From a virus, in IMG/VR virus record IMGVR_UViG_3300045988_139374, positions 160,001 to 224,000 of that record: DNA of 64,000 nucleotides. One strand, 5' to 3'. The position numbers were made by a program, and so were the translations under genes. Below the pieces are notes generated by a model. That model was not told the origin of the DNA and ran no database searches. It was given only the letters and a program-made list of their open reading frames with translations. This document shows positions 42 through 49,881 of this stretch, piece after piece (position 1 is the stretch's first letter; each line of letters opens with the position of its first letter).

Positions 42-1250
42 ATGATGACGAAAAAAGAATTAATTGACTTTTTAGTTGTATCTGGATACACTAGTAAGTT
101 AATTAAAAAGATCAAATATGTTGGAGTAAATTATAAAGGAGAAGATATATTTGAATTTACCCACATTGGTCGCACGATATTGATCAATGCTACCGATCTA
201 GCAAACTATCTCAGAGAATATGGTAGCTATATTAGTAGATATGAAGATGAAGAGAAAGATAGCTTTAAATATTTGTGCCAAAAGTATAGTTCTCATATTC
301 TTGAACCTATTGTAAGATATTGTGATAATATCTTTGATCCAAATGATTATATTGGGTATAGACATGCAGATGATCATTATACATTTGGAAGTTGCACTAT
401 TTTAAAGAATCTTGCAAGTAAAGATTGGAAGTATAAAACTATCAATGCAGAATTTACTCCAAATAATGCAATAAAGTTCTTGACTACTACATATGTATAT
501 ACAATGTGTAGATGCGGAACTGTTAATTATATTACATTAGACGATGCAATGTCTCAATACCCTACATGTACCAAATGTAGTTTGATCAGCCACATTACTT
601 ATCAATTGAATCATGATAGAAGTGAATCTAATTCTAGTATTCACTTCTATGATGCAATTGATATTAATCATTGTAGATTTAAATGTATTAATTGCGGTAC
701 TATATACACTGAAAATATGGAAAGTGTTGTGGTACAAAATAGGAGATATGGTAAATGCGTAGCTTGCTATGCTAAAGAGCAGATTCCGAAAATTATTGGA
801 AAGAAGCATGGCAAACTTACAATAGTTGATGCAGTTCCTGTAATTGATGAGAATGATCATCATATATCTTACTATAATGCAAAATGCAAATGCAAGTGTG
901 GAAGAACTGTATACGCTAAATATGAAATTAGACCTTCTGGGAACAAATTATACGGAACCAGCTGCAAATATTGCGATAAGAAATATCCTGGGTCCATGGA
1001 GGGTATTGATGCTCGTAAAGGAGAGAAGCATGGTAAGTTAAAAATCATAAAGAAAGCATATACATATTACAATGCTGATGGCATTAAAGATTTTAATACT
1101 GTGCAACGTGTAATCTGTCAATGTGAATGTGGAAACTTTACCATAGTTCCATTTAGTGCTCTTAAATTAGGTAAAGTAAAATCTTGTGGTCATTGCGGAA
1201 AGAAAATAACTCTTCCTTTCCCTTATGATTTGTCATTTTATGAAATGTAG
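42..1250 (+). CDS. Cys-rich multi zinc-ribbon repeat protein, function unknown (paralog of 30393..31142)
   Basis: 402-aa ORF; AAGGAG about 11 nt upstream of ATG; repeated modules KHGKLTI/KHGKLKI followed by CxC...CG...CxxC; hairpin terminator follows. Confidence 0.6.
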   Translation: MMTKKELIDFLVVSGYTSKLIKKIKYVGVNYKGEDIFEFTHIGRTILINATDLANYLREYGSYISRYEDEEKDSFKYLCQKYSSHILEPIVRYCDNIFDPNDYIGYRHADDHYTFGSCTILKNLASKDWKYKTINAEFTPNNAIKFLTTTYVYTMCRCGTVNYITLDDAMSQYPTCTKCSLISHITYQLNHDRSESNSSIHFYDAIDINHCRFKCINCGTIYTENMESVVVQNRRYGKCVACYAKEQIPKIIGKKHGKLTIVDAVPVIDENDHHISYYNAKCKCKCGRTVYAKYEIRPSGNKLYGTSCKYCDKKYPGSMEGIDARKGEKHGKLKIIKKAYTYYNADGIKDFNTVQRVICQCECGNFTIVPFSALKLGKVKSCGHCGKKITLPFPYDLSFYEM

Positions 1251-2276: not shown

Positions 2277-2570
2277 TCTGACGCTTCTATTAAGATCAAA
2301 ACAAAGTCTGGAAAATTTTCATATAGTAGCACTTACGGAAGAAATTATACATTTTATGATTATGAAGGAATATTTATTTCTGCATCAATTGACGGTATTG
2401 CATTTAACAATGATAATTATTTGTATAATTTGTATTATCCATCATTATATTCAATTCGTGTTAGTGATAAATATATTATTAAATCTTTCAATATTATAAG
2501 TTCTGATTCAGGAGGAAATAATATTTCTGGTATTGGAGATAATTTAAACATTATTATTTGCTATATTTAA
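2277..2570 (+). other. start-less fibre-tip-like cassette C1 (97 codons)
   Basis: Signal TGACGCTTCTATTAAG at 2279-2294. Frame TCT GAC GCT... gives SDASIKIKTKSGKF...NLNIIICYI-stop. TAA lies directly upstream in frame; no RBS or start codon. Confidence 0.6.
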
Positions 2571-2577
2571 AATTATT

Positions 2578-2612
2578 CAATAGAGAAATCTCTATTGGTT
2601 TTATTTTTTTTT
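2578..2612 (+). terminator. rho-independent terminator
   Basis: CAATAGAGA/TCTCTATTG palindrome 2578-2597 followed by T-run. Confidence 0.55.
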
Positions 2613-2634
2613 GTAGAATATATTAAAATACAAT

Positions 2635-3015
2635 AATCTGACGCTATTACGAAGTAGTCTGAGAAATCTGCCAAACCTCTATAAAAGGGCCTAAAATGGG
2701 CATTTTAAGAGGGTAAAATCGAGTGATTTTACACTTATTTTCAGTACTAAAAATTCAATTCAAGATAATAAATGTTTGATCAATAATCAATCTTAATTTA
2801 AAATATATAACAATATGGTAATGAAAGATGGTAGAAAAATCTTTTACCTTTAACAGCAGACACACAAACTATCTTTCATACATGAAGCATTCGATTTAAG
2901 ATTTATTGTGAAGACCGCTTTTAAGAGAGTCCCTTGGACTATAAACTGTGAAGACTTCGTTTAAGAAAATCAGATAAATCCATATCCAAGCCATTAAATG
3001 TAGTAGCGTCAGATT
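2635..3015. repeat. 16-bp inverted repeats (variant cassette signals) bounding a 349-bp non-coding segment
   Basis: AATCTGACGCTATTAC 2635-2650 versus the reverse complement of 3000-3015 (AATCTGACGCTACTAC): 15/16 match. Confidence 0.8.
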
Positions 3016-3065
3016 AAAATTGTGAAGCCTGCTTATATAGATTTTTGTGAAGACGACGGTTAAGA
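2882..3065 (+). repeat. five direct repeats of type GTGAAGAC-N5-TTAAGA
   Basis: R0 2882-2901, R1 2908-2926, R2 2948-2966, R3 3022-3041, R4 3047-3065; R1, R2 and R4 are each exactly 19 nt (GTGAAGAC N5 TTAAGA). Confidence 0.7.
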
Positions 3066-3073
3066 TTATTACT

Positions 3074-3111
3074 CGGTGTGGTCTTTATGATCACCCCGGA
3101 ATTTCTTTTTT
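3074..3111 (+). terminator. rho-independent terminator closing the non-coding module
   Basis: CGGTGTGGTC 3074-3083 pairs with GATCACCCCG 3089-3098 (9 of 10 positions), then a T-run. Confidence 0.5.
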
Positions 3112-3171
3112 AACAAAATATCACTATAAATAGCCCAAAATGGGTAATTTTAAGAAAGGAAATTTAATTTT

Positions 3172-4431
3172 ATGGCTATAATTGATAAAATTAAGGTTGG
3201 TAGCACTACCTATGATGTGTCGCCTTCTGCTTCTGGTACTCTGAACACTACTGGCACTACTAAGTTTGCTTCTAGTGACGTTGCTCAGGGAAATGCAACT
3301 GGCTGGACTAATGTAGATCAGATGACCACTGCTGATAACCATGCTACTCTGTTTACTAAGATCACTCAGATGGCAAAGAACGTCCGCTATCTGTACAATG
3401 TTCTTGGTACTGGCTTCTCCACTGGTTCTACTGTTAAGGGTCAGATTGATGGAAAAGCAGCAGCTAATCACTCTCACAAGGTTGCTCAACTGCCTACTTC
3501 TAGTACTCAAGTTAACTCCAATGACTATATTCCTACTTCTGCTCTGATCTATTCTATGAATCAGACTCTAACTTCGCTAAATGACGCTAGTAATAAACTT
3601 GGAGTCAGGATTTATAATACTAAATATGCAGTTGGAGGTATTCCTACCAAATCCCAATTTGCTGCAACTGACACTGTACAAAGCATTATTATTAAAATGC
3701 TAGGAGATATGGGTCAGAAACCCATTGACTCTTCTACACCTAATACAAGATATAAGTCTCAGAATCTTGGTACTTGGTCTAGTGTTAGTGATGTAGATAA
3801 TTTTCTTTATAGTTGTTGTCATGATACTGGTTATTATGGTGCTACTATTGGTAGTTATGTTACGATTAAAGATGGTGTATATAATAAAGAATGGATTATT
3901 GCTGGTTTTGATTGTGAAAAGAATCATAAAGCTTCCGATGGCAATACAAAGGATAATGGATATGGTATATGCTTAATACCTAAGAAGAGCTTAGGTAATT
4001 ATGTATGGGATTCTAATTCTATTATAAATGGATACAACGGATCTGAAATGCATAAGTCTACATTACCTGTAGTTGCGAATAATCTTAGAAAAGTATTAGG
4101 AAATCATCTTGTACAGCGTAATGTCCTTCTGAGTAATGCTGTAGATTCTAACTATTATGCTAAAGGCTATTTTTGGACTACTGCATATTGTACTCTTATG
4201 AGTACAGGACAAGTAACTGGTACATTTGCTTCTAATAGAAACAAGTATGATGATGGAGAAGCTAATTATAAACTTCCTTTGTTTAATTATGAAATATGGA
4301 GTTTTGATACCTGGGCCTGGTTGCGAGGGCTATTCGGCTACGGTGTCTATGGCCTTACCACTTCTGGTGGTTCTGGTTATGACATCTGTTACGTTAGTCA
4401 CGGTCTTCGCCCGCTCATTTATATTAGGTAA
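3172..4431 (+). CDS. DGR target: tail fibre / receptor-binding protein with C-terminal variable region
   Basis: 419-aa ORF. The N-terminus is paralogous to fibre 1395..2218 and includes NHSH. The C-terminus WAWLRGLFGYGVYGLTTSGGSGYDICYVSHGLRPLIYIR-stop resembles the CLec/FGE-type VR scaffold; the VR lies within the last ~115 nt of the ORF. Confidence 0.85.
   Translation: MAIIDKIKVGSTTYDVSPSASGTLNTTGTTKFASSDVAQGNATGWTNVDQMTTADNHATLFTKITQMAKNVRYLYNVLGTGFSTGSTVKGQIDGKAAANHSHKVAQLPTSSTQVNSNDYIPTSALIYSMNQTLTSLNDASNKLGVRIYNTKYAVGGIPTKSQFAATDTVQSIIIKMLGDMGQKPIDSSTPNTRYKSQNLGTWSSVSDVDNFLYSCCHDTGYYGATIGSYVTIKDGVYNKEWIIAGFDCEKNHKASDGNTKDNGYGICLIPKKSLGNYVWDSNSIINGYNGSEMHKSTLPVVANNLRKVLGNHLVQRNVLLSNAVDSNYYAKGYFWTTAYCTLMSTGQVTGTFASNRNKYDDGEANYKLPLFNYEIWSFDTWAWLRGLFGYGVYGLTTSGGSGYDICYVSHGLRPLIYIR
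4317..4417 (+). repeat. DGR variable region (VR)
   Basis: 101 nt align to TR with 12 mismatches, every one opposite a TR adenine. Confidence 0.9.
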
Positions 4432-4456: not shown

Positions 4457-4537
4457 AGTGGAATTACCGTAATATAAATGAAAGGTGAAGGCTTAACGAG
4501 TAAATATATTATTAATATAAAATAAGAGGTGGTTTGT

Positions 4538-5347
4538 GTGTCTGTCGTTAAGGGTAAAAGAAATCAATCTGATGTTGAATATTTTGATTATGCATATAAA
4601 GTTGTGGAGCATATAACTAAATTTCTTTTATCTGATCTTGGGATTAAGAAAACTTATAGAGACTTAAAAGTTTTTACTTATAAATCTCATATGGAGGAAG
4701 CTGATAAAGAAGAATTTGAGCATTTAGTAAATAAGTATGATTTGGAATTGGAAACAGATTTTCCTAATTGGCTAATGTGCTATTATAGAGAAACATTATT
4801 AACAATCATGAGAGATCTAATCAATAATATATCTGCAGCTTATACACTATATCCAAATTCTGTTTATGAATTTAATATCAAGAAACAGTATATTTCTGAT
4901 TCTATAGCTAATTGTTTCGATTTAAAACATCAACTCCAATTAGTAATTAGAATATTTCCAGCAAATATGAAGAAATATATTCCATTTGTAAAAGAAATCG
5001 ATAAGGAAATAGAGCTTCTTAAACAGTGGCGAAAGAACTTTACAGGAATTTCTAAGAAGCATTGCTACAATCAAGATGAAATCGCTAAGAGAGATGCTAT
5101 TAAGAGAGTAAATAAGATTGAAGCAAAGAATGAGCGTAAACTTCAAGTGAACAATAATTTCCTTGTAGAATATATGAAAGCAGTTTACACTCAACAAGTG
5201 CTTATGGATAATCTATATCATACAACCTTCTATTATAATCAGCAAAATCAGTATTGCTCCGAACTGCCTATTGCAGCTTGTACATTCTTTGATCAAAATG
5301 GATATTATATTGGAGATTCTGCTCATGATTTTGTTACAACTAACTAA
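4538..5347 (+). CDS. candidate DGR accessory protein (Avd-like by position), otherwise hypothetical
   Basis: ORF lies between the target gene and TR. In-frame GTG at 4538 follows AAGAGGTGG. Predicted helical and basic. At ~270 aa it is longer than a typical Avd. Confidence 0.5.
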   Translation: MSVVKGKRNQSDVEYFDYAYKVVEHITKFLLSDLGIKKTYRDLKVFTYKSHMEEADKEEFEHLVNKYDLELETDFPNWLMCYYRETLLTIMRDLINNISAAYTLYPNSVYEFNIKKQYISDSIANCFDLKHQLQLVIRIFPANMKKYIPFVKEIDKEIELLKQWRKNFTGISKKHCYNQDEIAKRDAIKRVNKIEAKNERKLQVNNNFLVEYMKAVYTQQVLMDNLYHTTFYYNQQNQYCSELPIAACTFFDQNGYYIGDSAHDFVTTN

Positions 5348-5378: not shown

Positions 5379-5497
5379 CTGGTTGCGAGGGCTATACGGC
5401 AACAACAACCTCAACAACAACAATGTCTATGGCCTTACCACTTCTGGTGGTTCTGATTATAACAACTGTAACAATAGTAACGGTCTTCGCCCGATCA
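5379..5497 (+). repeat. DGR template region (TR)
   Basis: 119 nt, AAC/AAT-rich (WLRGLYGNNNLNNNNVYGLTTSGGSDYNNCNNSNGLRPIN in the VR frame), intergenic between avd-like gene and RT. Confidence 0.9.
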
Positions 5498-5651
5498 ACA
5501 GCATCTTGGCAATTTAAGGATCGAAAGATCTGGCCAGGATGTCTGTATGAGGAGGGAGTTCCCTTTCCGAAAGGAAGAAACAATAAAGCTGGCTACGGTT
5601 CTGGCATTACGATGCTGAATCTATTGGGCTGGTATATTTTTTTTTATTTTT

Positions 5652-6938
5652 ATGATTATTGATTTTAGTAATGAAGATTGGGGCGAAAATCCCTGTGAAT
5701 ATACTGAAGGAAAATTAGATTCTATTGCAGATCCAGATAAATTATATCAATCTTATAGAAAAGCTTCTAAACCAATTTATTATAAAGCATCTACTCAAAG
5801 ATATGGATTAAATCTATTATCTAATATTGCTATTGCAAATGAAGCATTAAATAATGGATCTTATAAAATTGGAGATCCATATGAATTTATTCTCACAGAA
5901 CGCGGTAGAATTAGATATGTAAAAGCATTATATATGTTTGATCAAGTAGTGCAGAGATCTTTCAATGATAATGTATTAAATCCTGCTATTGCTAATAAGA
6001 TGATTTATGATAATGGAGCTTGTGTAAAAGGAAAAGGTGTTGCTTTTACAAGAATGAGATTTAAGCAGCATCTACAACAAGCATATTATCAATTTGGATA
6101 TGATGGTTATATAATGATCATCGATTTTTCTAAATATTTTGATAATATTCTTCATCAAGAAGCTTTAAAACAATTCGAACCTCTATTAACGCCAGAAGAA
6201 TACAATTTTCTTAAAATTACTTTTGATACATTCAAACTAGATGTATCTTATATGTCAGATGCAGAATATCTAGAAGCTAGAGATTCTCTGTTTAATCTTC
6301 TAGAATATTCTATGATGGCAAAAGAAAATTTCAAAGGATTAAAGCTTCTTGAAAAGTCTGTTGGAATTGGTAATCAAACTTCTCAAGGAACTGGAATGTA
6401 CTATCCTCATGAAATAGACAATTATGTGACTATAGTAAGAGGATATGGATTATATGGAAGGCATATGGATGATACATATGTATTTGCTAAAACTAAAGAA
6501 GAATTACAACAACTTCTTGAAGAAATAAAAGAATTGTGTAAGAATCTTGGAATTCATATTAATCTTAAGAAAACTAGAATAGAACCCATCAAGAATACAA
6601 TTTCATATCTTAAAATAAATTATAAAATTATTGAAACTGGAAGAGTATTTGAATTAGTCCCAAATAAAGTATTTAAAAGAGAAAAAGATAAATTAACAAA
6701 ATATAGGGATCTTTGCATTCAATATAAAATGACTGCTATTACAGTTCTTCAATGTTATCTTAGTTGGAGAGGTGTATATAATAAATTTGATTCTAAAAGA
6801 AAAATATATGCACTGGATTGCTATTTTAAAGATCTTTATTGTTTAGGATTTAGAGATACAAATCTATATGATTTGTTGCATTTCTATATGCGTGTAGAAA
6901 GAGAGAAATTAAATAACTATCCAGTCATGAAATATTAA
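5652..6938 (+). CDS. DGR reverse transcriptase
   Basis: IIDFSKYFDNI (motif A-like), VGIGNQTSQ (the DGR-typical [I/L]GNxxSQ), YGRHMDDTYVF (YxDD box). Confidence 0.9.
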   Translation: MIIDFSNEDWGENPCEYTEGKLDSIADPDKLYQSYRKASKPIYYKASTQRYGLNLLSNIAIANEALNNGSYKIGDPYEFILTERGRIRYVKALYMFDQVVQRSFNDNVLNPAIANKMIYDNGACVKGKGVAFTRMRFKQHLQQAYYQFGYDGYIMIIDFSKYFDNILHQEALKQFEPLLTPEEYNFLKITFDTFKLDVSYMSDAEYLEARDSLFNLLEYSMMAKENFKGLKLLEKSVGIGNQTSQGTGMYYPHEIDNYVTIVRGYGLYGRHMDDTYVFAKTKEELQQLLEEIKELCKNLGIHINLKKTRIEPIKNTISYLKINYKIIETGRVFELVPNKVFKREKDKLTKYRDLCIQYKMTAITVLQCYLSWRGVYNKFDSKRKIYALDCYFKDLYCLGFRDTNLYDLLHFYMRVEREKLNNYPVMKY

Positions 6939-7026: not shown

Positions 7027-7617
7027 ATGTCCGACAAACGTACTGATTACATTTCTAAAGATCAAATGTATATGGGAATTGCTCAACTTGCTGCAATGAG
7101 ATCTAAAGATCCTAATTCTCAAGTTGGTGCAGTTTTTGTATCTTCTAATGATCGTATCCTTAGCATTGGTTATAATGGATTTCCTAATGGAATTTCTGAT
7201 GATGAATTCCCTTGGGCAAGAGAAGCTGAATCTGAAGAGAATACTAAATATCCTTATGTAGTTCATGCAGAAGAAAATGCTATTCTTAACTTCCGTGGAG
7301 ACCTTTCTGCTTTTAAAGGCTCTACTCTTTACGTAACAATGTTTCCTTGCCATAACTGTACGAAGGCTCTTATTCAAGTTGGCGTTAAGCATATTTATTA
7401 TGGTATTAATAAATATCCTGATACGGCAGATTTTAGAGAAGCTACTAGAATGCTTGATGCTGTTGGAATCAAGTATGAACAACTGGTCAATGATATGATT
7501 ATTATATCAACAAAAGATTTTATTGATGCTTTTAATAATCTATCAGATAAATCAAGAGATTTAACAGATCTAACAGGGTTTGTTGATAGGATGAATTTTC
7601 CTGAGTATTATAAATAA
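7027..7617 (+). CDS. dCMP deaminase (cytidine/deoxycytidylate deaminase fold)
   Basis: VVHAEENAI and MFPCHNCTKALIQVG (HAE...PCxxC zinc motifs); AAGGAGG RBS. Confidence 0.8.
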   Translation: MSDKRTDYISKDQMYMGIAQLAAMRSKDPNSQVGAVFVSSNDRILSIGYNGFPNGISDDEFPWAREAESEENTKYPYVVHAEENAILNFRGDLSAFKGSTLYVTMFPCHNCTKALIQVGVKHIYYGINKYPDTADFREATRMLDAVGIKYEQLVNDMIIISTKDFIDAFNNLSDKSRDLTDLTGFVDRMNFPEYYK

Positions 7618-7747: not shown

Positions 7748-9463
7748 ATGGAAAACAATAATGTCAATCTATCTAAATATGGATATCAAGAGCAAAGATA
7801 TCCTATTGATACTACTGGCTATAAGCAACTTCATGACTATAACATCGAGTATCAGATGGCACATCAGAAGGAGTTTAACTTCCTTCAGCCTCTTCCTAAT
7901 GATCTTATGTCTACTACTAAGACATATCCTCATTCTGATGAGTTTGAGTTTTCTGGACAGCTTGAAATCATTAATTATGATAAAGCTTGTGAAGAAGACC
8001 TTAGGGAAGGAAATGGTTTTATTGTAGAACCAGCTGGTAGAAATATCAAGAAAGATCTTCATGCTGAGGATGGTATTTTCTCTCCTAAGTTTGGACAAAC
8101 CTTGGCTGATACTAATCCTTTTATGGATCGTTATCGTTGTCGGTGTAAAGAAGGAGGGCTTCGTGGCCGTAATAATGCCGGTTTGCGTTGTCCAAAATGT
8201 GGTCATCTATGTTCTTATGTAGATGATAATTTTAATTATCGTGGATGGATTAAACTTTCTGAGCCTTATAAGTTTATTCATCCTACCTTCTACACTTATA
8301 TCGATTCTATCCTTGGTAAAGGTATCTATATCCAGGGTAATAAGCGTACTAAGCTTGAAAATATTCTTGACGTTACTGATACTCAATTGGTTCTTAATTC
8401 TATTAAGATTGATGATCCCAAACTTAAAGATGAACCGTTCTTTGGTATTGGAATGATTGCTTTTGTCGAACGCTTTGATGAGATCATGGATTATTATATC
8501 AAGAAGCGCCCTAATAAGCGTAATTATTATGATGCCATTTATCAGTCTCGTGATTCTGTATTTTCATCTTCGCTTCCTGTCATCACTACATTGCTTCGTC
8601 CGTTCGATATAGATGGCAACAACATGACCTATGAGCCAACGAATGCAATGTATACAATGATTAATAAACTTGCTACTTCTATTAATAAGAATAAAACTGC
8701 TATCCAGAGAGAACCTAAAATCAAGAACCAGCAGCTTTATAATCTTCAAAAGAAGTTTATGGAAATTTATGCTGAACAAATTTCTATTCTAGCAGGTAAG
8801 AAGGGAGATTTTAGATGTCTACTTGGTGGACGTTATAACTTCTCTTCTCGTTGTGTTATTGTTCAAAATCCTAATCTTCGTATTGATGAGATTACTATGC
8901 CTGCTGTAGCATTGACTGTTATGCTTGAGCAAAGAATTAAAAATATTCTCTGCCGTATGCATGGTATGACTCCTACACAAGCACATGATATTTGGTATAA
9001 AGCTACTATTGAGCCTAATAAACGTATAAATACCATTATTCAATCCATCATCGATGATTTTAAACACAAAGGCATGCGTGGGCTTCCGGTTATCATTGGA
9101 CGAAATCCTACACTTGCTTATGGCTCTATTCTGCAAATGTTCTGTGTTGGGATTACTGATTCTTATACCTTAGCAGTTCCTCTACAGATCTTAAAATTCT
9201 TGGCTGCTGACTTCGACGGCGACGTTATATATTGCTTGGTTCCGATGAATCAGACTTTTATTCGTCTTGCTTGGGAAAAATTCAATCCTAGGAATGCTAT
9301 GTATATTTCTAGAGATAATGGATATTTCAATCCCAATGCATTGATGCAAAGAGATACACTTATTAATGCTAATACTTTAGCAAGATTAGGAAGGGAGAAT
9401 TACACACAAGAAGATCTTAATAAGTTCGATAGAATTCAGAAAGCTATTAAAGCAGCTGGTTAA
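7748..9463 (+). CDS. multisubunit RNA polymerase beta-prime-like subunit, N-terminal fragment
   Basis: CRCKEGGLRGRNNAGLRCPKCGH (CxC...CxxC zinc ribbon); GRNPTLAYGSILQM (compare NRAPTLHRLGIQAF); LAADFDGDVIY (catalytic DFDGD at 9209-9223); only 571 aa, so a split beta-prime. Confidence 0.8.
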   Translation: MENNNVNLSKYGYQEQRYPIDTTGYKQLHDYNIEYQMAHQKEFNFLQPLPNDLMSTTKTYPHSDEFEFSGQLEIINYDKACEEDLREGNGFIVEPAGRNIKKDLHAEDGIFSPKFGQTLADTNPFMDRYRCRCKEGGLRGRNNAGLRCPKCGHLCSYVDDNFNYRGWIKLSEPYKFIHPTFYTYIDSILGKGIYIQGNKRTKLENILDVTDTQLVLNSIKIDDPKLKDEPFFGIGMIAFVERFDEIMDYYIKKRPNKRNYYDAIYQSRDSVFSSSLPVITTLLRPFDIDGNNMTYEPTNAMYTMINKLATSINKNKTAIQREPKIKNQQLYNLQKKFMEIYAEQISILAGKKGDFRCLLGGRYNFSSRCVIVQNPNLRIDEITMPAVALTVMLEQRIKNILCRMHGMTPTQAHDIWYKATIEPNKRINTIIQSIIDDFKHKGMRGLPVIIGRNPTLAYGSILQMFCVGITDSYTLAVPLQILKFLAADFDGDVIYCLVPMNQTFIRLAWEKFNPRNAMYISRDNGYFNPNALMQRDTLINANTLARLGRENYTQEDLNKFDRIQKAIKAAG

Positions 9464-9641: not shown

Positions 9642-9875
9642 TTAGATATAAAATATTCTTACATTATATTTTACTATAGAAATAAGTTGTTTATTTAGAT
9701 CGATATTAAATGTAACGATTACATAATTTAAATAATCAGGGACGTAATATATGGCAACATATGGAAATCCAGAGATTGAATTTATGTCTGCACATATTGC
9801 AGATATTACAATTATATTGTTAAATGATTTCATTTCTGAAATATACATATCTCTTTGCTTAATAGAAGCGTCATT
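9642..9875 (-). other. start-less cassette C4 (77 codons), last of the minus-strand array
   Basis: Signal at 9858-9873 (rev); NDASIKQRDMYISEM...VRIFYI-stop. Confidence 0.55.
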
Positions 9876-10168
9876 TACATATCAAAATACCAACATTTGC
9901 ATGTAATAGGATTTTTACCATCGGTATATATTTCATTATCTGCAAGCCTTCCGACTTTTGTCATATAAACTTCACAGTTAGTAACTTTAAATGTACCATC
10001 ATCAAAATATCCACTGGCAGCTATTACAGGAAATGTATAATATCCAGCATTTCCTTTTGGATATAGTATTGGCATTGCTTGAATTATATATGCTTTAGAT
10101 AAGTACCCGCATGATGCATATTCACTATATGGAACTTTACAAGTATTAGTTTTAAGAGAAGCGTCATT
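9875..10168 (-). other. start-less cassette C5 (97 codons)
   Basis: Signal at 10151-10166 (rev, TGACGCTTCTCTTAAA); NDASLKTNTCKV...KCWYFDM-stop. Confidence 0.55.
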
Positions 10169-10496
10169 GTGCTTTACCTTTAATATAAAATATATTAATG
10201 ATGACTTCTGCATTTGATAAAGATGTTTTGTTAAAAGGCATAATTTTTTCATGCAATGTATCAATACCTAGTATATATAATTTTCTGCCAGTTGTCCAAA
10301 TACCAGTATTTGGATCTTGTGTTGAATCGATACTTGTAGATAGGAAAGTTAAATACATTCTAACAGTATTACTACAATATGCATAGTGAGCTATAATATC
10401 ATCATCAGTAACAGAAATATCTGTATCAAGAATAAAATAAGAAATATCATTCTTTACTCTACCTTGCTTCATTTTAATTTTAGTAGAAGCGTCATT
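10164..10496 (-). other. start-less cassette C6 (110 codons)
   Basis: Signal at 10479-10494 (rev); NDASTKIKMKQGRV...INIFYIKGKAQ; the stop is the TGA inside the next signal. Confidence 0.55.
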
Positions 10497-10506
10497 TATA
10501 TTGGTA

Positions 10507-10767
10507 TTATAGATTTTTTAAATAAAATACAATTAATCTTCTAATAGATGAATGCATTGTTAAAGTATTATTAGGGAATCCTCTTATATCTATATAATAA
10601 CATGAATCATCTTCATCATACCATATATCTACATATTCAGCTTGCTCAGTTTTACCTGTTATTTTAGATTCAATATAAAGTCCAACAATTGGAATTCCTA
10701 AATAAAAAGCTTGTTTACTACTTTTTGGAAGAGTTAATTCTATATTATATATAATAGAAGCGTCATT
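10507..10767 (-). other. start-less cassette C7 (86 codons)
   Basis: Signal at 10750-10765 (rev); NDASIIYNIELT...LIVFYLKNL-stop. Confidence 0.55.
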
Positions 10768-11065
10768 TACCAAAATAATAATATATTTTTATATTAAATG
10801 CTGTATTTACTTTTATTAATTTATAATCATTAATTTCAAACAATTGAATTATAGAATAAAAACTACCCTTTTCATATATTCCTTGATACATTGCTGGAAA
10901 TATATACTTAGGAGAATAATTGATAGGAAATAATGTTTGATTATACGTGGTACTATACACAGCAAATATTATATATGCTGATAGCCCAGATGGCACATCA
11001 TATCTTTCTTTATATATTCCATTCTCATCAGTTGTTACATCTTTACTCTTAATAGAAGCGTCATT
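10763..11065 (-). other. start-less cassette C8 (100 codons)
   Basis: Signal at 11048-11063 (rev); NDASIKSKDVTT...IKIYYYFGK; the stop is the TGA inside the next signal. Confidence 0.55.
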
Positions 11066-11384
11066 CACTAATATAATAGTATATTTTAATACCAATTTTA
11101 TCTGATGGCTTTATAAGCTGTCCATTGTCATTTATTTTATATACTTGAATTACAATATATCTATTAACAGCATCTGCAATTTTTCCATATGAGCCAGAAT
11201 ATATTGCAGGAATTATATATATTGGAACATTCATTTGATTTACTAGATTTCCAGTCATTGTGGATGTATTACTATATATCGCTAAAATATTTTTATGAGA
11301 ACTAATTCCAAATACGCCTAATGCAATTTTATATTCTCCACTGCTATCAGTTTCCACTATTTCATGTTTAATAGAAGCGTCAGA
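11061..11384 (-). other. start-less cassette C9 (107 codons)
   Basis: Signal at 11367-11382 (rev); SDASIKHEIVET...IKIYYYISE; the stop is the TGA inside the next signal. Confidence 0.55.
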
Positions 11385-11388
11385 CTTG

Positions 11389-11673
11389 TTAAATATAATA
11401 TATAATAATTGAAACATTACGTCCATTACGAGATGCCGTGCTGCCATTAATATCTGATGTATATACAAGAATAGTTCTAATTACCCATTCAACATCTGTA
11501 GTTTTAAATATTTGAATTAATGGAATAGATGAACTGGTATTTACAGCTGGATTTATGTATGCATTTATTAAAATTCCATTAGTAAATTTATATAAGTAAT
11601 CATTGTCATTTAAACCATTTGAATATTTTCTAGGATATACGGTATCAGTTTTAATCTTAATAGAAGCGTCAAA
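11389..11673 (-). other. start-less cassette C10 (94 codons), first of the minus-strand array
   Basis: Signal at 11656-11671 (rev); FDASIKIKTDTVYPRK...VSIIIYYI-stop; no ATG/GTG/TTG in frame, so it is absent from the ORF track. Confidence 0.55.
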
Positions 11674-11704
11674 TTATTAGATATTAAAATACTAGGTAAG
11701 GAAT

Positions 11705-11748
11705 CTACTAATGTTACAGTCGATGGTACCACTATAGTATTTGGATAA
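11705..11748 (+). pseudogene. orphan 3' end of a tail-fibre paralog
   Basis: Encodes ...TNVTVDGTTIVFG-stop (compare ...GVSVSGTTVVFG-stop of 1395..2218); 11725-11806 matches 2195-2276 with 1 mismatch; no upstream ORF. Confidence 0.55.
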
Positions 11749-11764
11749 TAAATATTATAAATAA

Positions 11765-11806
11765 AATTCCCATAGGATTTTTATATCCTATGGGATTCTT
11801 TTATAG
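11765..11806 (+). terminator. duplicate of the fibre-gene terminator
   Basis: Same hairpin as at 2235-2267. Confidence 0.6.
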
Positions 11807-11814
11807 TCTTATAA

Positions 11815-12393
11815 TCTGACGCTACTAAGAATTTTGGAAATGGAAGTCTAATTAAATCTATTACTTATGAAGGATCCTATACTACAAGTACTGTTTATTC
11901 ATATCAAATCGATGATTGGCTAAAAGTAAATTGTACTTCTACTAATCCTATTAGAACAAAAATATCTAGATTATATGATATTGTATTTTTCTTCGATACA
12001 GATGTTGAGGAGTTAGCTATAAATATGCTTAGACATTTATTTGCTGTTGGAGCTGACTATAAGTATCTTGGTGGATTTATACTCATGAAGAAAATATCAA
12101 ATGAATGGACACCTGGTAGATCTCTTTCTCAGGCTAGCTTTGATTATTTTTTAGGCCCATATATAGAATATGGATTGGCACCTAAACAATTTGTTAAATA
12201 TCGAGTAATTAGAGAGAATAATGCATATTATATAGATAGATATGTTGATACATCAGAGAAAAACTACAAAAATGATAATATTTCCTATCAGATATTATAT
12301 AGGAATACAGAACCGCATAAATATTTAATATATGGAATAGATTTTGAAGATCATGTATCTGATGTTGTGAATAGTAAGCCAGTAGATCAGTAA
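11815..12393 (+). other. start-less large cassette C11 (192 codons)
   Basis: Variant signal TGACGCTACTAAGAAT at 11817-11832; SDATKNFGNGSLIKSITYEG... is homologous to C17; TAA directly upstream in frame. Confidence 0.55.
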
Positions 12394-45648: not shown

Positions 45649-45879
45649 CTACAATACATACCTTCTAATGAGATACATCCATTTTTTCTGAACAGCATAA
45701 AATAATGTAGCATTCAAATTATTATAATCTCTAGCATATTCAAAATCAAAATCATATCCAATCATAGTTCCATCTATTTTATATGCATGGCCAGAGTCAT
45801 AGACACTACTACAATCATGAACTTTAGATGTATAAACATTAGTTATTTTCTTTATAGAATTATTATTAGAAGCGTCAGA
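45649..45879 (-). other. start-less cassette C12 (76 codons)
   Basis: Signal at 45862-45877 (rev, TGACGCTTCTAATAAT); SDASNNNSIKKITNVYTSK... Confidence 0.5.
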
Positions 45880-45883
45880 CTTA

Positions 45884-46117
45884 TTAAATATAGATGATGT
45901 TTGCATGACATGAAGTATTACCAGATAATGATGAACCATCGGAATAGTGATCCATATCTACGAATCTACAATATAATTTTCCATTATTTTGATAAATATA
46001 GTCTATATCACTGTATTTAATACGATCTAATATATCAAATCCTATCAATGTACCATTTAATGTATATCCATCTTTAGTAATATAAATATTACTAAGCTTT
46101 TTTATAGAAGCGTCATT
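45884..46117 (-). other. start-less cassette C13 (77 codons)
   Basis: Signal at 46100-46115 (rev); NDASIKKLSNIYITKDG...CHANIIYI-stop-stop. Confidence 0.55.
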
Positions 46118-46152
46118 AGTATTTTAAAAAGTATTTATTTTCACTTGTATAG

Positions 46153-46191
46153 TATAAAATTGAAATAGAAAGAAGAAAGAGTACTTCTATT
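46153..46191 (+). promoter_or_regulatory. conserved 39-nt upstream element (TATAAnAnTGA-ATAGAAG-N13-CTTCTAT)
   Basis: 35/39 identical to 47869-47907; both copies end ~30-50 nt upstream of the start codon of a plus-strand gene. Confidence 0.5.
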
Positions 46192-46240
46192 TATGTATTA
46201 GCAAAAAAACAAATATAGTGTACTTATAGGAGGTACAATT

Positions 46241-46567
46241 ATGCTGACCGAAAAAAATATTAATGATGTGGCAACGTTGAGTGTTATTGGTAACGACAAC
46301 GGCAAAGGAATCAATCCGACCGTGATCGATTATAAAATAAACAATGGAGGGTATTACGCCCTCGCATTGGTAAAGCTAAATGATGCATATACCATTTTCA
46401 ACATTGCTGGAATGGTTGCCCCTAGCGGGATACAAGCTGAAAGAGTAGGCTTGTATGTATGCAATCCTGAATGGGATTGCATAATAGATATTGTTTCCAA
46501 GAGCGAATTAATTTCTGACGAGCAGACTGCTCGTCAGAAGTTTGAAGATTACTGCAAGCTTCTATAA
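46241..46567 (+). CDS. hypothetical protein (atypical, GC-richer codons)
   Basis: 108-aa ORF, TAGGAGG RBS, strong terminator; embedded between cassettes. Confidence 0.6.
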   Translation: MLTEKNINDVATLSVIGNDNGKGINPTVIDYKINNGGYYALALVKLNDAYTIFNIAGMVAPSGIQAERVGLYVCNPEWDCIIDIVSKSELISDEQTARQKFEDYCKLL

Positions 46568-46572
46568 AGCAA

Positions 46573-46616
46573 AATGTGAGTAAGAGATATCTCTTACTCA
46601 CATTTATTTTTTTTAT
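46573..46616 (+). terminator. rho-independent terminator
   Basis: Perfect 16-bp palindrome AATGTGAGTAAGAGAT/ATCTCTTACTCACATT followed by T-run. Confidence 0.75.
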
Positions 46617-46621
46617 AATGA

Positions 46622-46879
46622 TTTGACGCTTCTATTAAGAGTACTGTAATCACAACACCTAGTGATTATTCATCTGTAGATTTTAAGCTTGGAATTCCAG
46701 TAGGCGTATTTCCATATTCATCTAGAGATATAAGCGTATATCAATTGTATGAAGTATATTATAGATATTATGATTCTACCATTATATCATTTGGAATTAG
46801 AAGTATTAATATTAAAAATAATGGAAATATAGAGTATTGTATAGGTCAGCAAATTTTAGTGTATTATATTCCAATTTGA
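46622..46879 (+). other. start-less cassette C14 (85 codons)
   Basis: Signal at 46624-46639; FDASIKSTVITTPSDY...QQILVYYIPI-stop; converges on and overlaps C15. Confidence 0.55.
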
Positions 46880-47119
46880 AATATAAAAAATATTTAAAGT
46901 TAACCCTGCAATTCTTTTAAATTTAGTAAAATCATCACCAATAGCTTGACCAACGACTATTACATAATTATCGTTATTATTTTTATATTGCATTATAAAT
47001 TGGAATCCTTCGCTTAAATCATTATTACCAATAATAGTATTAATTAAAATTTTATCTAGTGATATTGTATATCCATTTATAGAACTAATAGCTGTCATCA
47101 TTTTAATAGAAGCGTCAGA
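46856..47119 (-). other. start-less cassette C15 (87 codons)
   Basis: Signal at 47102-47117 (rev); SDASIKMMTAISSINGY...LNIFYISNWNIIH-stop. Confidence 0.55.
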
Positions 47120-47146
47120 CTTATTTATAAAGGAGGTAAATTTATT

Positions 47147-47800
47147 ATGGGAATTATTATAAATGAAAAGTGTGTTACTTATAATAAAATTTATGATATT
47201 AAGAATACTAAAATAGATAAATATAAATTGGTTATCATTGGTGAAATACATGGATCTTCTATGATTGGGGTTTATGATAAACTTCTTAAATCTTCTCATT
47301 ATGATTACTTTCTTGCTGAATTTGCTTATGATGATAAAGCTCTTACTAGAGAAGATATTAAATATAAAATGGATCATGCTACTAATGGTGGAATGGGTCC
47401 GTGTGATTATCAATATAATTATTGGCTTTATGAATTAGCATATAAATATAATATTCCTTTGATTGGTATTGATAGAGGAGATACTAATAGTTTTAAATCT
47501 AGAGAAGAAGAATTTAAAACTAGAGAATCTATTATGATCAATACTATTCAACAATATTCAGGAAAAGGAAGATGCTTAGTGCAAATAGGAGATGCTCATG
47601 TAAGAAATATTCCTATTAGTAAAGAATATATTAAGCAATATAATTATGATGATGAATTCTACGAAGGAAATATTGATAATCAAACAGTATCTTTTGCAAG
47701 TCCAATATATGAAAAATATGTAAATGATCCAAATGCAATTATATTTAGAAATAAAAAAGAATATGAAGATGAACAAAAATTTTTAAAAGAAAATTCATAA
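47147..47800 (+). CDS. hypothetical protein, possible ChaN/Tiki-like fold
   Basis: AAAGGAGG RBS; IIGEIHGS and QIGDAHV motifs; weak call. Confidence 0.5.
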   Translation: MGIIINEKCVTYNKIYDIKNTKIDKYKLVIIGEIHGSSMIGVYDKLLKSSHYDYFLAEFAYDDKALTREDIKYKMDHATNGGMGPCDYQYNYWLYELAYKYNIPLIGIDRGDTNSFKSREEEFKTRESIMINTIQQYSGKGRCLVQIGDAHVRNIPISKEYIKQYNYDDEFYEGNIDNQTVSFASPIYEKYVNDPNAIIFRNKKEYEDEQKFLKENS

Positions 47801-47801
47801 A

Positions 47802-47845
47802 GATAGAGGTAGAGTATTTTTACTCTACCTCTATTATATTTTAAT
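47802..47845 (+). terminator. rho-independent terminator
   Basis: ATAGAGGTAGAGTA pairs with TACTCTACCTCTAT. Confidence 0.6.
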
Positions 47846-47868
47846 TATTGTACTAAATAAATATATAA

Positions 47869-47907
47869 TATAATAATGAGATAGAAGGAAGAAAGAGTAC
47901 TTCTATT
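47869..47907 (+). promoter_or_regulatory. second copy of the conserved 39-nt upstream element
   Basis: See 46153-46191. Confidence 0.5.
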
Positions 47908-47936
47908 GGCCTGTAAATAAAAGTGGAGGTATTAAA

Positions 47937-48749
47937 ATGATTGATGGATTAAAGATGCTTACAGAAGACGATGTAAAAATCGAATTCTTAGAATCAGCAA
48001 ACAATGGAATATGCTATATTGCAATGGTTGAGTATTCGATTAGTTATGGCAAAATCGAATATAAGATGTATTCCGTAAGAACTGTTGTAAAAATACCAAT
48101 TTTTAGAACTCGTCGTTGTATTATTGTAGATAATATTCCTGATAATGAATATATCGATGCTAATTACGATAATGTCAAATGCCGTTATGATAATATGGCT
48201 AAAACATTATTTGAAAATAATAGAATAGTATATGATGGTGTCGAAACCATTGATCAAAATGCGTTTGTATCTAAGATTTGCTTGGATGCATGTGTAAAAA
48301 AGATCAATCGCGCTACAGCAAAATTATATTTCCAAAATATGAACATCAGTTTTTTAAACATTGATGTGAATAAAAAACTTCCGACTCAGTTGGATATGAC
48401 TATATTTATCAATGGTAATCAGGAAACTATTAGCATTATGAATGTGAACAAAATTAAAAAGCATGGCGCTTCTCGTGCAAGGTCTAATAGTTTTTATATC
48501 ATTGATAAGAAAGTTCATAAATCTATAATTTATTGCATGCTAGATGCAATAAGAGAGATATATGGATATGGACTATACGAATATGGTCTTGACAGATGCG
48601 ATTTAAAATCTATTAATGATATTCTCAATAAATATAACATTGAATATGGCGATGATATATTTATTGATATTGAATCTAAATACGAATATATCATTAATAT
48701 GATAGATAATCATATTAATGATAATACTGATGAAATGGTATATCAATAA
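47937..48749 (+). CDS. hypothetical protein
   Basis: 270-aa ORF, GTGGAGG RBS. Confidence 0.6.
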   Translation: MIDGLKMLTEDDVKIEFLESANNGICYIAMVEYSISYGKIEYKMYSVRTVVKIPIFRTRRCIIVDNIPDNEYIDANYDNVKCRYDNMAKTLFENNRIVYDGVETIDQNAFVSKICLDACVKKINRATAKLYFQNMNISFLNIDVNKKLPTQLDMTIFINGNQETISIMNVNKIKKHGASRARSNSFYIIDKKVHKSIIYCMLDAIREIYGYGLYEYGLDRCDLKSINDILNKYNIEYGDDIFIDIESKYEYIINMIDNHINDNTDEMVYQ

Positions 48750-48756
48750 TATAAAA

Positions 48757-48797
48757 GGAGTGGGTTCCATTCGCCCACTCCTTTTATTTTTTTTTTC
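48757..48797 (+). terminator. rho-independent terminator (near-identical to 1286..1325)
   Basis: GGAGTGG 48757-48763 pairs with CCACTCC 48775-48781, followed by T-run. Confidence 0.7.
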
Positions 48798-48821
48798 AAA
48801 AAGTAGATTAAAATACAATAA

Positions 48822-49115
48822 TCTGACGCTTCTATTAAGTACATAGATATTTCATTACATCTAAAGAGTAGTATATCATATGAACATAACATATCATCAA
48901 ATCCTATTATATCTATTATAGGAGTTTTTACAAATATTAGTAATTGTATTCCAATACTTAATAATCTATCTTTTGAAGAAAAAATTGATTCTAATGATAA
49001 CTTAGTCGAATTCCAAGTAATTGACTATAATTTATATACTATAAGTAGTGGAAAATTAATATTAACAAAAGTATCTGGATATGTTACTATATTTTATATT
49101 GAACCTTCCAATTAA
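48822..49115 (+). other. start-less cassette C16 (97 codons)
   Basis: Signal at 48824-48839, directly after the promoter-like box; SDASIKYIDISLHLK...YVTIFYIEPSN-stop. Confidence 0.55.
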
Positions 49116-49119
49116 ATAA

Positions 49120-49626
49120 TCTGACGCTTCTAAGAATTTTGGAAATGGAAGTTTTATTAAATCCATTACTTATGAAGGATATTATACAATTAGTGATAAA
49201 TATATAAACCATATGAGTTCAGATACTTGTATTAGAACTACTGTATCTAAAATGTATGATGTTGTGTTATTCGCTGAATTAGAAACTACAAACAATACTT
49301 TATTAGCTGAGCAAAATCCATATGTTAAAGTATTTCAAAATATTATCAAAGGTTCATTTGCTGGATATGTATTTATGAATTTAATGCCTACATCTTGGAA
49401 GATTTTATATAATAATACTTCTAGCAATGATTTTATTGGGCCATATGTTGAATATGATCATTGTCCTACAAGTGGTGTAGTAGCTAGAAGAAATAGATTA
49501 TCCATAGAAAGATACTGTGCAAAGTATACTAACAATATGGATTATCAATTATTAGCTAGACAAGGCATTAGATATGATGTATATGGTCTAATGCTTAGAG
49601 ATGAAATTGCTAATCTATTTAGATAA
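49120..49626 (+). other. start-less large cassette C17 (168 codons)
   Basis: Signal at 49122-49137; SDASKNFGNGSFIKSITYEG... is homologous to C11. Confidence 0.55.
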
Positions 49627-49627
49627 G

Positions 49628-49881
49628 TATGACGCTTCTATCAAGCGAACTGTTGTTACTCTTAAATATAATAATACCGAAGTAGGATGTAAATTTACAT
49701 TAGGAGCTCCAGTTGGAGGATATATACTTACAGAAATTAATAGCTGGATTGTAATACGTATGGATAAAAATATGAATATTCTATATTTGGAATTTATGTT
49801 CGTACTTGGTTAGGTGACGGATTAATTGAAAAAATTCAATATATAGATAATTATTATAAAGCTACTATATTTTACATTTAA
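49628..49881 (+). pseudogene. frameshifted cassette C18
   Basis: Signal at 49630-49645; YDASIKRTVVTL... stops at TAG 49811-49813, while ...YYKATIFYI-stop lies in another frame; one extra A in the A5 run at ~49766-49770 would fuse them. Confidence 0.5.

Follow-up and report, generated by a model that had tools for sequence, protein, structure and literature searches.

A stretch of 64,000 nucleotides of viral DNA (IMG/VR record IMGVR_UViG_3300045988_139374, positions 160,001 to 224,000; the whole stretch is hereafter called the window) contains, at positions 2613-3111, a block in which no credible open reading frame (ORF) is found on either strand, as a first-pass annotation had stated. The block ends at the leader of a gene (3172-4431) whose C-terminal part is the target domain of a diversity-generating retroelement (DGR). 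What is the function of this non-coding module? The first-pass annotation, made from the sequence alone, had tied it to a system of gene cassettes and had offered an invertible promoter switch (inverton), a regulatory or guide-like RNA of about 0.45 kb, or a decayed cassette locus. The tie to the cassette system holds, in that the module travels with the expression site of that system. Regarding its role, we favour another reading, to which we give a probability of about 0.6: 2613-3111 would be the non-coding half of a 943-bp unit that a recombinase excises as a small circle and re-inserts before any of about 17 cassettes.

The window is AT-rich phage DNA (33% GC). Its relatives are human-gut metagenome contigs of 160-276 kb, so the lineage is one of human-gut jumbo phages. 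No near match to the window was found among the deposited phages of INPHARED. All homologue evidence presented here comes from assembled metagenome contigs (loci labelled L), compared between genomes and samples. Thirteen module homologues were aligned first and more were added later, about 20 copies in total. They split into two clades, A and B, which are about 77% identical, and two distant clades are represented by L057 and L058 (about 52% N-terminal protein identity).

A constant N-terminus joined to different cassettes

Gene 3172-4431 starts with a constant N-terminus (aa 1-139/140) that is 81-98% identical in 11 full-length metagenome loci and 79-99% identical in 61 protein clusters. It shares 53-58% identity with the N-terminus of the tail-fibre-like gene 1380-2218 (gene 1380), a longer paralogue of which matches tail-fibre PHROGs; within the window, this type of N-terminus occurs in these two genes only. 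At the end of the constant part, the gene carries the 7-bp core TGACGCT in frame (…TSL-N-D-A-S…). The junction gaatcagactct[a/g]acttcgctaaa-TGACGCT, invariant up to the core, precedes different cassettes in different contigs. What follows it is the DGR-target domain in the window and in L020-L023, AYTQEVADR… in L024 and L025, AYLPIAGGTMTG… in L017, and small domains of 74-100 aa in L026, L027, L030, L047, L055 and L056. A protein search returned 72 proteins with this N-terminus and the NDA junction, most of them 205-244 aa long, carrying dozens of unrelated C-termini. Domains fused in one genome recur as silent cassettes in other genomes; the alternative fusions are observed between genomes or samples, not within one population. 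One N-terminus and one junction with many C-termini that are silent elsewhere point to 3172-3588 as the expression site of a cassette system. The window has one such acceptor, as does each long contig examined, and L046 hints at two N-termini in one genome. An AlphaFold2 model of the N-terminus plus cassette protein (11-sequence alignment) reached a predicted local distance difference test score of 44.7 and was not used.

The silent cassettes are headed by a common signal, AATCTGACGCTWNTA, with 12 matches in the window against 1.6 expected (0 of 100 shuffles reached 12). Read as xxT-GAC-GCT, it opens startless ORFs of 60-190 aa (SDASIK...), most of which have a stop codon directly 5'. A wider scan found 16 silent cassettes on both strands, in three clusters (2.3 kb; 9.6-12.4 kb; 45.6-49.8 kb), and the core codes for (N/S)-D-A in the acceptor and in all 16 of them. 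The logo of 90 silent sites, A-a-T-c-TGACGCT-TCTATTAA, is strong in the right arm and weak in the left; these sites are simple sequences of about 20 bp, in which no hairpin of the folded attC kind was found. The cassette nearest the module, C1, lies between two direct cores. It is cleanly present in the window and L020 and absent from L005 and L023, where its site is joined directly to the module.

Other routes to the expression of startless cassettes were considered and rejected. Translational bypass from GGA-TAA of gene 1380 over the hairpin would require a GGA/GGG landing site that gives the cassette frame without an in-frame TAA, and none does; the differing spacing of the copies (8-nt insertion at 11805) also contradicts it. 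A +1 frameshift between tandem cassettes would run into a stop at some junctions, and the ATT within the signal that could serve as a non-AUG start is not conserved (11813, 45867).

The DGR-target domain is itself one cassette of the system, silent in L024, L038, L047 and L048, which argues that cassette switching and DGR mutagenesis are layered, as far as sequence comparison can tell. The look-up that yielded L047 and L048 used P0079, an internal ORF of a silent cassette. In L038 and L055, the avd-like gene (4529-5347), the template repeat (TR; 5383-5500) and the reverse transcriptase (RT) gene are absent, and the dCMP deaminase gene follows directly.

A unit bounded by direct cores and its probable circular form

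The acceptor core has a direct counterpart at the left edge of the module. Between the two cores, the unit 2639-3588 spans 943 bp and comprises the module, the leader and the first 139 codons. In the 13 aligned homologues, similarity starts at the left TGACGCT, with differing sequence upstream; at the other end, the sequences match the window as far as 3588 in L024-L027 and, in L030, as far as 3597, which is a few bases beyond the core. From core to core, the unit measures 943-944 bp in clade A and 834-836 bp in clade B. The left neighbour of the unit is the tail-fibre terminator in L005 and L023 and various cassette ends in L021, L025-L027, L047 and L055. Module and expression site lie within cluster 3 in L026, L047 and L048, and three further neighbourhoods are found in L054, L055 and L056.

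Two loci of sample ERZ1034984 represent a filled and an empty site. L026 carries the unit in cluster 3, between homologues of the 49120-49636 and 48898-49097 cassettes, with both flanks colinear with the window. L038 has, at the cluster 1 position that the unit occupies in the window, a bare silent DGR-type cassette with neither module nor N-terminus. Their coverage is nearly equal (161x and 164x). Judging from these comparisons, the unit between the direct cores appears to be mobile as a whole.

In one metagenome, the unit was assembled in circular form. The MEGAHIT k141 contig L045 is 1085 bp long, and its first and last 141 bp are identical; closed on this overlap, it becomes a circle of 944 bp, while the unit measures 943-944 bp in genomic copies. 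The circle holds exactly one core and the whole unit. It codes for P0024, an ORF made of the N-terminus plus DAITK*; P0024 and P0060 both end in …SLNDAITK, the constant N-terminus running into the first codons of the module. A 7-bp repeat cannot create this junction in a graph of k = 141, and therefore molecules with the junction existed in the L045 sample, as free circles or tandem copies. The junction (CTTCGCTAAATGACGCTATTACGAAG; 31-mer across it, CTTCGCTAAATGACGCTATTACGAAGTAGTC) was not found in IMG/VR. It joins the end of the constant coding region (P arm) through the core to the start of the module (P' arm) and forms an imperfect palindrome, TCAGACT-cta-ACTTCG-c-TAAA, TGACGCT, ATTA-CGAAGT-AGTCTGA. 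Both arms are invariant across clades A and B. Since the P' arm mirrors the coding end, the circle junction is palindromic and of the recombinase type: the P-core-P' layout has the features predicted for a tyrosine-recombinase core site that is complete only in the circle or tandem junction.

A hybrid gene was observed in L046 (800-1374). It is of the 1380 type in its upstream region and over the first ~30 codons, the remainder is the expression-site N-terminus, and it is fused at the core to DAITK* and the module. Such a gene implies that the two paralogous N-termini have undergone homologous exchange and that the genome holds two N-terminal units.

Several observations weigh against an excised and re-inserted circle. 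The circular contig, seen in assembly only, could reflect at least two tandem copies of the unit and not a free circle; L046, from another sample, shows a tandem-like N-terminus-core-module arrangement, and the circular assembly is the only one. L021 and L025 have the same left flank and different fused cassettes, and the window and L021 have the same cassette and different left flanks. The two junctions of the unit thus change independently, so that cassette exchange or inversion is involved and not only hopping of the whole unit. An inverted backbone lies beside the unit in L030. L024 keeps the expression site without the module, which is therefore not strictly required for persistence of the gene. 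That the phage recombinase described below acts on the TGACGCT cores, and with what site specificity, we infer from sequence. In L024 (560-700), the deletion joins AATCTG of a signal to GGTATTTTTAAG of the leader, removing 2641-~3143 with the first part of the leader.

Some of these points would suit a shufflon that works by inversion only, where the module would be one segment with two degenerate null cassettes (DAITK* and a 24-aa peptide), lying beside the constant region by chance or linkage, and the circular contig would be a tandem duplication. The inversion in L030 and the independent variation of the two junctions (L021 vs L025) are in its favour, as are the presence of cassettes in both orientations and the asymmetry of the site, whose conserved right and weak left arm recall the sfx sites of R64. 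Tail-fibre shufflons with a tyrosine recombinase are also documented, in Rin (PMC6109161) and in BV01-like phages (PMC13596623). Yet many cassettes are direct to the acceptor and up to 46 kb away, so that fusing them by inversion would flip essential genes. The L026/L038 pair shows clean insertion and absence of the exact unit with colinear flanks, C1 is cleanly present or absent between direct sites, and the P-core-P' junction was assembled in L045. Moreover, the P' arm mirrors the P arm and is conserved above the coding sequence, which a decayed cassette would not be. With dispersed and often direct cassettes, insertion or absence of the unit and a circular junction, next to inversions that are also seen (L030), we consider switching by inversion alone unlikely.

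Parts of the non-coding module

In the excised-circle reading, the module contributes the second boundary core, the 31-nt mirror arm, a stop with a hairpin, and a second hairpin before the leader (Table 1). The P' arm is 100% identical between clades A and B, whose coding sequence is about 82% identical, and is still recognisable in L057 and L058. It has no match in GTDB genome contigs, which thus give no clue to the host. In total, the first 38 nt past the left core are invariant across the clades, where coding sequence differs by about 18%. This rules against the decayed cassette locus of the first-pass annotation; what stands of that proposal is that both cores of the module head tiny ORFs (DAITK* and the 24-aa peptide). 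In the circle or tandem form, the TAG at 2655-2657 in the P' arm ends the frame as ...NDAITK*, and the stop together with hairpin 1 makes this form a closed gene.

Table 1. Annotated features of the window, by position.
Feature	Position	Strand	Remarks
Four-zinc-ribbon protein	42..1250	+	402 aa, four Cys4 zinc-ribbon repeats
Silent cassette C1	2279..2570	+	SDASIKIKTKSG..., 97 aa, no start codon, TAA immediately 5'
Flanking context: GTAGAATATATTAAAATACAAT box and left half-site AATC	2613..2638	+	outside the conserved module, belongs to resident cassette site
Left boundary core TGACGCT, attL-like	2639..2645	+	invariant in all ~20 copies; homology of relatives begins exactly here
P' arm ATTACGAAGTAGTCTGAGAAATCTGCCAAAC	2646..2676	+	mirror image of the 21 nt that end the constant coding region
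Leader copy	2679..2717	+	72% match to 3124-3162 over 39 nt; holds palindrome TAAAATG-GG-CATTTTA
Hairpin 1 and T-rich tail	2709..2745	+	terminator-like, downstream of the DAITK stop; stem region 2709-2736
AT-rich block TCTTAATTTAAAATATATAACAATATGGTAATGAA	2789..2822	+	87% identity between clades; surroundings 30-55%
Five direct repeats TGAAG-N2-(T)TCG-N-TT(T)AAGA	2883..3066	+	starts 2883, 2909, 2949, 3023, 3048; candidate protein-binding sites
Inner inverted signal	3001..3015 (core 3005-3011)	-	heads 24-aa ORF
Hairpin 2 and T-run	3074..3111	+	terminator-like putative insulator, just upstream of leader
Leader and ribosome-binding site, presumably promoter	3112..3171	+	conserved with the unit in all relatives; partly deleted in L024
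Constant N-terminal coding part, aa 1-137	3172..3581	+	last 21 nt (3561-3581, TCAGACTCTAACTTCGCTAAA) = P arm
Acceptor core TGACGCT, attR-like right boundary	3582..3588	+	codons ..T GAC GCT = N-D-A
Currently expressed C-terminal cassette, DGR-target domain	3589..4431	+	silent cassette in L024, L038, L047, L048
DGR reverse transcriptase	5652-6938		
dCMP deaminase	7027-7617		
RNA polymerase beta' fragment	7748-9463		split multisubunit type
Cassette cluster 2	9642..12393		seven minus-strand cores: 9873, 10166, 10494, 10765, 11063, 11382, 11671
Cassette cluster 2, single plus-strand cassette	core 11817	+	
3432-aa protein	14673-24971		
Cassette cluster 3	45649..49813		cores 45877(-), 46115(-), 46624(+), 47117(-), 48824(+), 49122(+), 49630(+)

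Hairpin 1 is retained at its position with changing sequence. Clade A keeps the stem with a variable loop, clade B has a perfect 12-bp stem of different sequence (z = -5.0), and L057 and L058 have unrelated hairpins of 12 and 19 bp there. A stem kept with different sequences argues for a terminator-like element, serving the ...DAITK* gene or stopping incoming transcription. The terminator proposed to close the module, hairpin 2, is likewise sustained: its stem (3074-3098 plus T-run) folds better than shuffled sequences (z = -3.1) and is identical in clades A and B. The near-copy of the DGR-target leader is present and conserved in both clades, and was not seen in L057 and L058. The leader motif has two copies in the window and no others, and the AT-rich block has a single copy there, so neither is a general phage promoter motif. 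The leader copy itself looks operator-like from its sequence.

All five direct repeats of about 19 nt reported before are present, and no copy was found elsewhere in the window. The repeat count is 5 in clade A, 6 in clade B, 5 (as TTGAAGAAnTTGT) in L057 and 0 in L058, and the repeat at 2949 includes the arm motif ACTTCG-TTTAA. The sequence around the repeats is poorly conserved, and the region as a whole is 0-50% identical between clades. Conservation in relatives therefore holds for the repeats in clades A, B and L057, though not in L058, and the inner inverted core is altered or missing in some relatives.

The inverted signals around a 349-nt segment that had drawn attention to the module do exist: 2634-2650 and 3000-3016 are complementary at 94% over 17 nt. 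Both arms belong to the AATCTGACGCTWNTA family, and the right arm, on the minus strand, has 15 nt in common, without a mismatch, with the 11813 signal that heads cassette C11. They are thus recombination-type sites of the cassette system, but the main partner of the left one is the direct core at 3582-3588 and not the inverted copy. Of 17 copies, 15 retain the inner core and two, L021 and L056, carry a mutated one; L057 and L058 lack it. None of the 72 fusion proteins uses its mini-cassette, and the core is probably either a relic that can be dispensed with or a minor site.

On the inverton reading, the segment between these inverted cores would flip and switch a promoter or an RNA, with CTCAGACTACTTCGTAATAGCGTCAGATTAAAA as the predicted 31-mer of the inverted junction. 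The inverted repeat, an available recombinase and the conserved AT-rich block inside the segment would fit. The assembled copies, however, are all in one orientation (~20 of ~20), clade B arms pair over a core of about 7-8 bp only, and the inner core is lost or mutated as described above. A promoter for such a switch is putative. The sigma70-like TTGATC-17-TAAAAT is a match at chance level (9 such sites found in the search, 8.1 expected) in a phage that encodes its own RNA polymerase subunits, and its -35 hexamer TTGATC is not conserved even among relatives of about 95% identity. Two terminator-like hairpins also separate the segment from the gene. We therefore regard an inverton as very improbable. 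The promoter-like box at 2613-2631 is present, with similar boxes preceding gene 1380 and the 48820 cassette, but lies outside the conserved module: the alignment shows that the sequence left of TGACGCT differs in nearly every relative, and the box stands at the left of the module in the window and L020.

A further possibility is that the central part, about 2810-3111, is a regulatory or guide RNA of 200-300 nt acting in recombination or cassette expression; its transcript would include the TGAAG repeats together with sequence antisense to the signal. Such an RNA could coexist with the excised circle. The region lies between two plus-strand terminator-like hairpins, is preceded by the highly conserved AT-rich block, contains AGCGUCAGAU, which is complementary to the signal, and has repeats kept in three clades. 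Nevertheless, Rfam 15 gave no gathering-score hit, and none at E <= 1 for 2550-3250. A candidate RNA of 302 nt folds no better than shuffled sequences (z = -0.38), and the consensus fold of the module homologues, the covariation check that the first-pass annotation had advised, is weak (-8 kcal/mol, one covarying pair). Several relatives have a mutated antisense core or none, the repeat region diverges strongly between clades, and the recombinase is an ordinary Xer-like tyrosine enzyme that needs no guide. These results, with a 2613 box that is not conserved, give no support to the ~0.45-kb RNA first suggested as a structured or guide-like molecule and leave a shorter RNA improbable, though an unstructured transcript is conceivable.

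Direct repeats next to an AT-rich block also recall an iteron origin that would let the excised circle replicate. Five or six repeats adjoin the conserved block, and the assembly of the circle as a loop without branches may point to a high copy number. On the other side, the 944-bp unit holds no initiator gene, L058 has no repeats, and the repeats lie just upstream of the leader, as expected of activator or accessory sites. We give this explanation hardly any weight.

Recombinase, proposed mechanism and known systems

A candidate enzyme is encoded close by. Two genes upstream of gene 1380, just outside the 64-kb window, lies the gene of a 329-aa tyrosine recombinase (PF00589 at 1e-39), which is XerA/XerC/XerD-like with scores below the curated cut-offs. 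In every relative that reaches this position (L005, L020, L023, L042, L055), it is directly upstream of the first gene of the window. It is conserved at 99-100% in clade A and 92.6% in L038, and it is also found near the unit in L055 and L058. Against models of integron integrases, it scores 100.8 bits with TIGR02249 (cut-off 265) and 69 bits with NF011946 (cut-off 435). Arm-type binding as by lambda Int was rejected for this enzyme, which has only SAM-like core-binding and catalytic domains. Between recombinase and tail-fibre gene, relatives always carry the zinc-ribbon gene (L005, L020, L023, L042, L055). Its protein has a weak CSL zinc-finger match and an N-terminal part matching PHROG 374 'HNH endonuclease'; no nuclease domain was found in it. 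It may be an accessory DNA-binding factor.

We propose that the Xer-like recombinase of the phage recombines TGACGCT cores. Recombination between the two cores of the unit would yield the ~944-bp circle and leave the former fusion cassette silent. Integration at the core of any of the ~17 startless cassettes would then create an in-frame fusion, ...SLN-DA-S/T..., with a new C-terminal domain; inversions would also occur, as L030 indicates. The hairpins may insulate the unit from DNA upstream of its new insertion site, and the TGAAG repeats and the AT-rich block may be bound by the recombinase, by an accessory protein such as the zinc-ribbon protein, or by a regulator. In its fullest form, this would be a 'reverse integron': a minicircle of 0.85-0.95 kb that carries a promoter or leader and an N-terminal virion-anchor domain, has an attP-like site of its own and is moved by the Xer-like recombinase among ~17 dispersed startless receptor-binding cassettes. 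Its attP-like arms would be the coding end and the start of the module, the module would be the recombination and insulation region of the circle, and one cassette would be diversified further by the DGR. We hold this composite picture tentatively, at slightly less than even odds.

Known systems share parts of this arrangement. Tail-fibre shufflons and inversion systems include Min of p15B, Gin of Mu and Cin of P1, with serine recombinases, and Rin of Bifidobacterium prophages and the shufflon of BV01-like Phocaeicola phages, with tyrosine or unspecified recombinases (PMC6109161, PMC13596623). As in these, alternative C-terminal receptor-binding segments are attached to a constant N-terminus through a short, asymmetric crossover site. 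The joints would be made by a recombinase of the phage itself, and the likely purpose is host-range variation. Those shufflons, however, are compact (1.7-5 kb), lie beside the constant region and switch by inversion. The phage studied here has 17 cassettes in three clusters across 48 kb on both strands, a constant part with a presumed promoter and a 0.5-kb non-coding module bounded by two direct sites, a filled/empty insertion polymorphism and a circular form.

The vsa system of Mycoplasma pulmonis uses HvsR, and its expression site also supplies the 5' coding region. With vsa and with the vpma system of M. agalactiae, the phage system shares an Xer-like tyrosine recombinase, a single expression site that bears the promoter (presumed in the phage), the same short site at the head of many silent genes and, apparently, the occurrence of both inversions and excisions. 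The Mycoplasma systems differ in serving bacterial surface lipoproteins from one contiguous locus, the vpma site lying in the 5' untranslated region. Xer1 of M. agalactiae is reported to invert and excise DNA and so to place one promoter before different silent vpma genes (Czurda et al. 2010, cited in PMC5634654); a self-contained excisable expression unit with mirrored arms is not known to have been described for these systems.

Like integrons, the phage system would involve excision and integration of small circles by a tyrosine recombinase and promoterless cassettes expressed from one platform. The attI site of integrons has extra direct-repeat binding sites for the recombinase, DR1 and DR2, of which the TGAAG repeats are a possible analogue. 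Unlike in integrons, the platform (promoter plus N-terminal exon) would be the mobile circle and the cassettes would stay put; the sites are simple duplexes of ~20 bp, the product is an in-frame protein fusion, and the recombinase is far below integrase cut-offs. A complex site on a circle (core, conserved arms and repeats) is also found in lambda attP/attB and in the Xer sites with accessory sequences, cer and psi, and, as with lambda, the circle site would recombine with many simple sites and leave hybrid attL- and attR-like junctions when integrated. In contrast to lambda-type enzymes, the phage recombinase has no recognisable arm-binding domain, and arm-type binding is putative. Invertons such as fimS and the Bacteroides capsule promoters resemble the module in that short inverted repeats flank a few hundred non-coding bp beside a surface-structure gene; they differ from it in that the module is seen in one orientation, its inner arm is dispensable in relatives and its promoter is putative.

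Several further features were observed at the locus. A poly-G tract (1779-1792) splits gene 1380 into frames 1380-1826 and 1772-2218. In relatives, the tract (N plus G-run) is 9, 10 or 11 nt long, and the reading frame of the gene is intact in L005, L020 and L023 and broken in L039, L041, L042 and the window; the length change could be phase variation or a homopolymer assembly error. At 11700-11812, the last ~40 nt of the tail-fibre gene and the terminator are duplicated 5' of the 11813 signal, with 8 extra nt (AGTCTTAT) that resemble a half-signal. The stretch 48750-48818, which lies 5' of the 48820 signal, repeats the terminator and GTAGATTAAAAT box that precede gene 1380. Both duplications are likely scars of earlier rearrangements. 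A whole 1380-type gene occupies the 11.7-kb position in L001, L034, L035 and L036. Beside cluster 3 in L047 (682-3650), a radical-SAM gene adjoins a gene faintly matching a Cxxx-repeat radical-SAM target peptide, a pair that looks from its sequence like a peptide-modification cassette inside a jumbo phage. Finally, many assemblies break inside or beside the module, expression site or cassettes, namely L005 (contig end at window-equivalent 2693), L017, L020, L028, L030, L033, L037 and L042, as would be compatible with repeats at this locus or with heterogeneity within samples.

The host range of phages changes when receptor-binding domains are swapped or mutated, and the recombination switches that serve this are, to our knowledge, small, local inversion systems with two to six alternatives. 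The lineage described here keeps about 17 alternatives in each genome, at scattered positions, and dozens in the population as a whole. That tail fibres can be switched through site-specific recombination is already known; in the literature searched, we found no excisable unit of promoter plus N-terminal exon with its own attP-like junction, nor, for such systems, cassettes dispersed over ~48 kb or a DGR overlay on one cassette. The mobile expression module stands a substantial chance of being a new mechanism. The phage has apparently solved the access problem by taking the promoter and N-terminal anchor to the cassette, not the cassette to the gene, and hence without inversion or deletion of essential DNA. 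With a DGR acting on one alternative, coarse switching would be layered over fine diversification. If the mechanism is correct, a 7-bp core, two arms of ~20-30 nt and one Xer-like enzyme would make up a compact, portable device for in-frame domain swapping, it would explain why assemblies of abundant gut jumbo phages break at this locus, and the puzzling non-coding block would become a defined cis-acting region.

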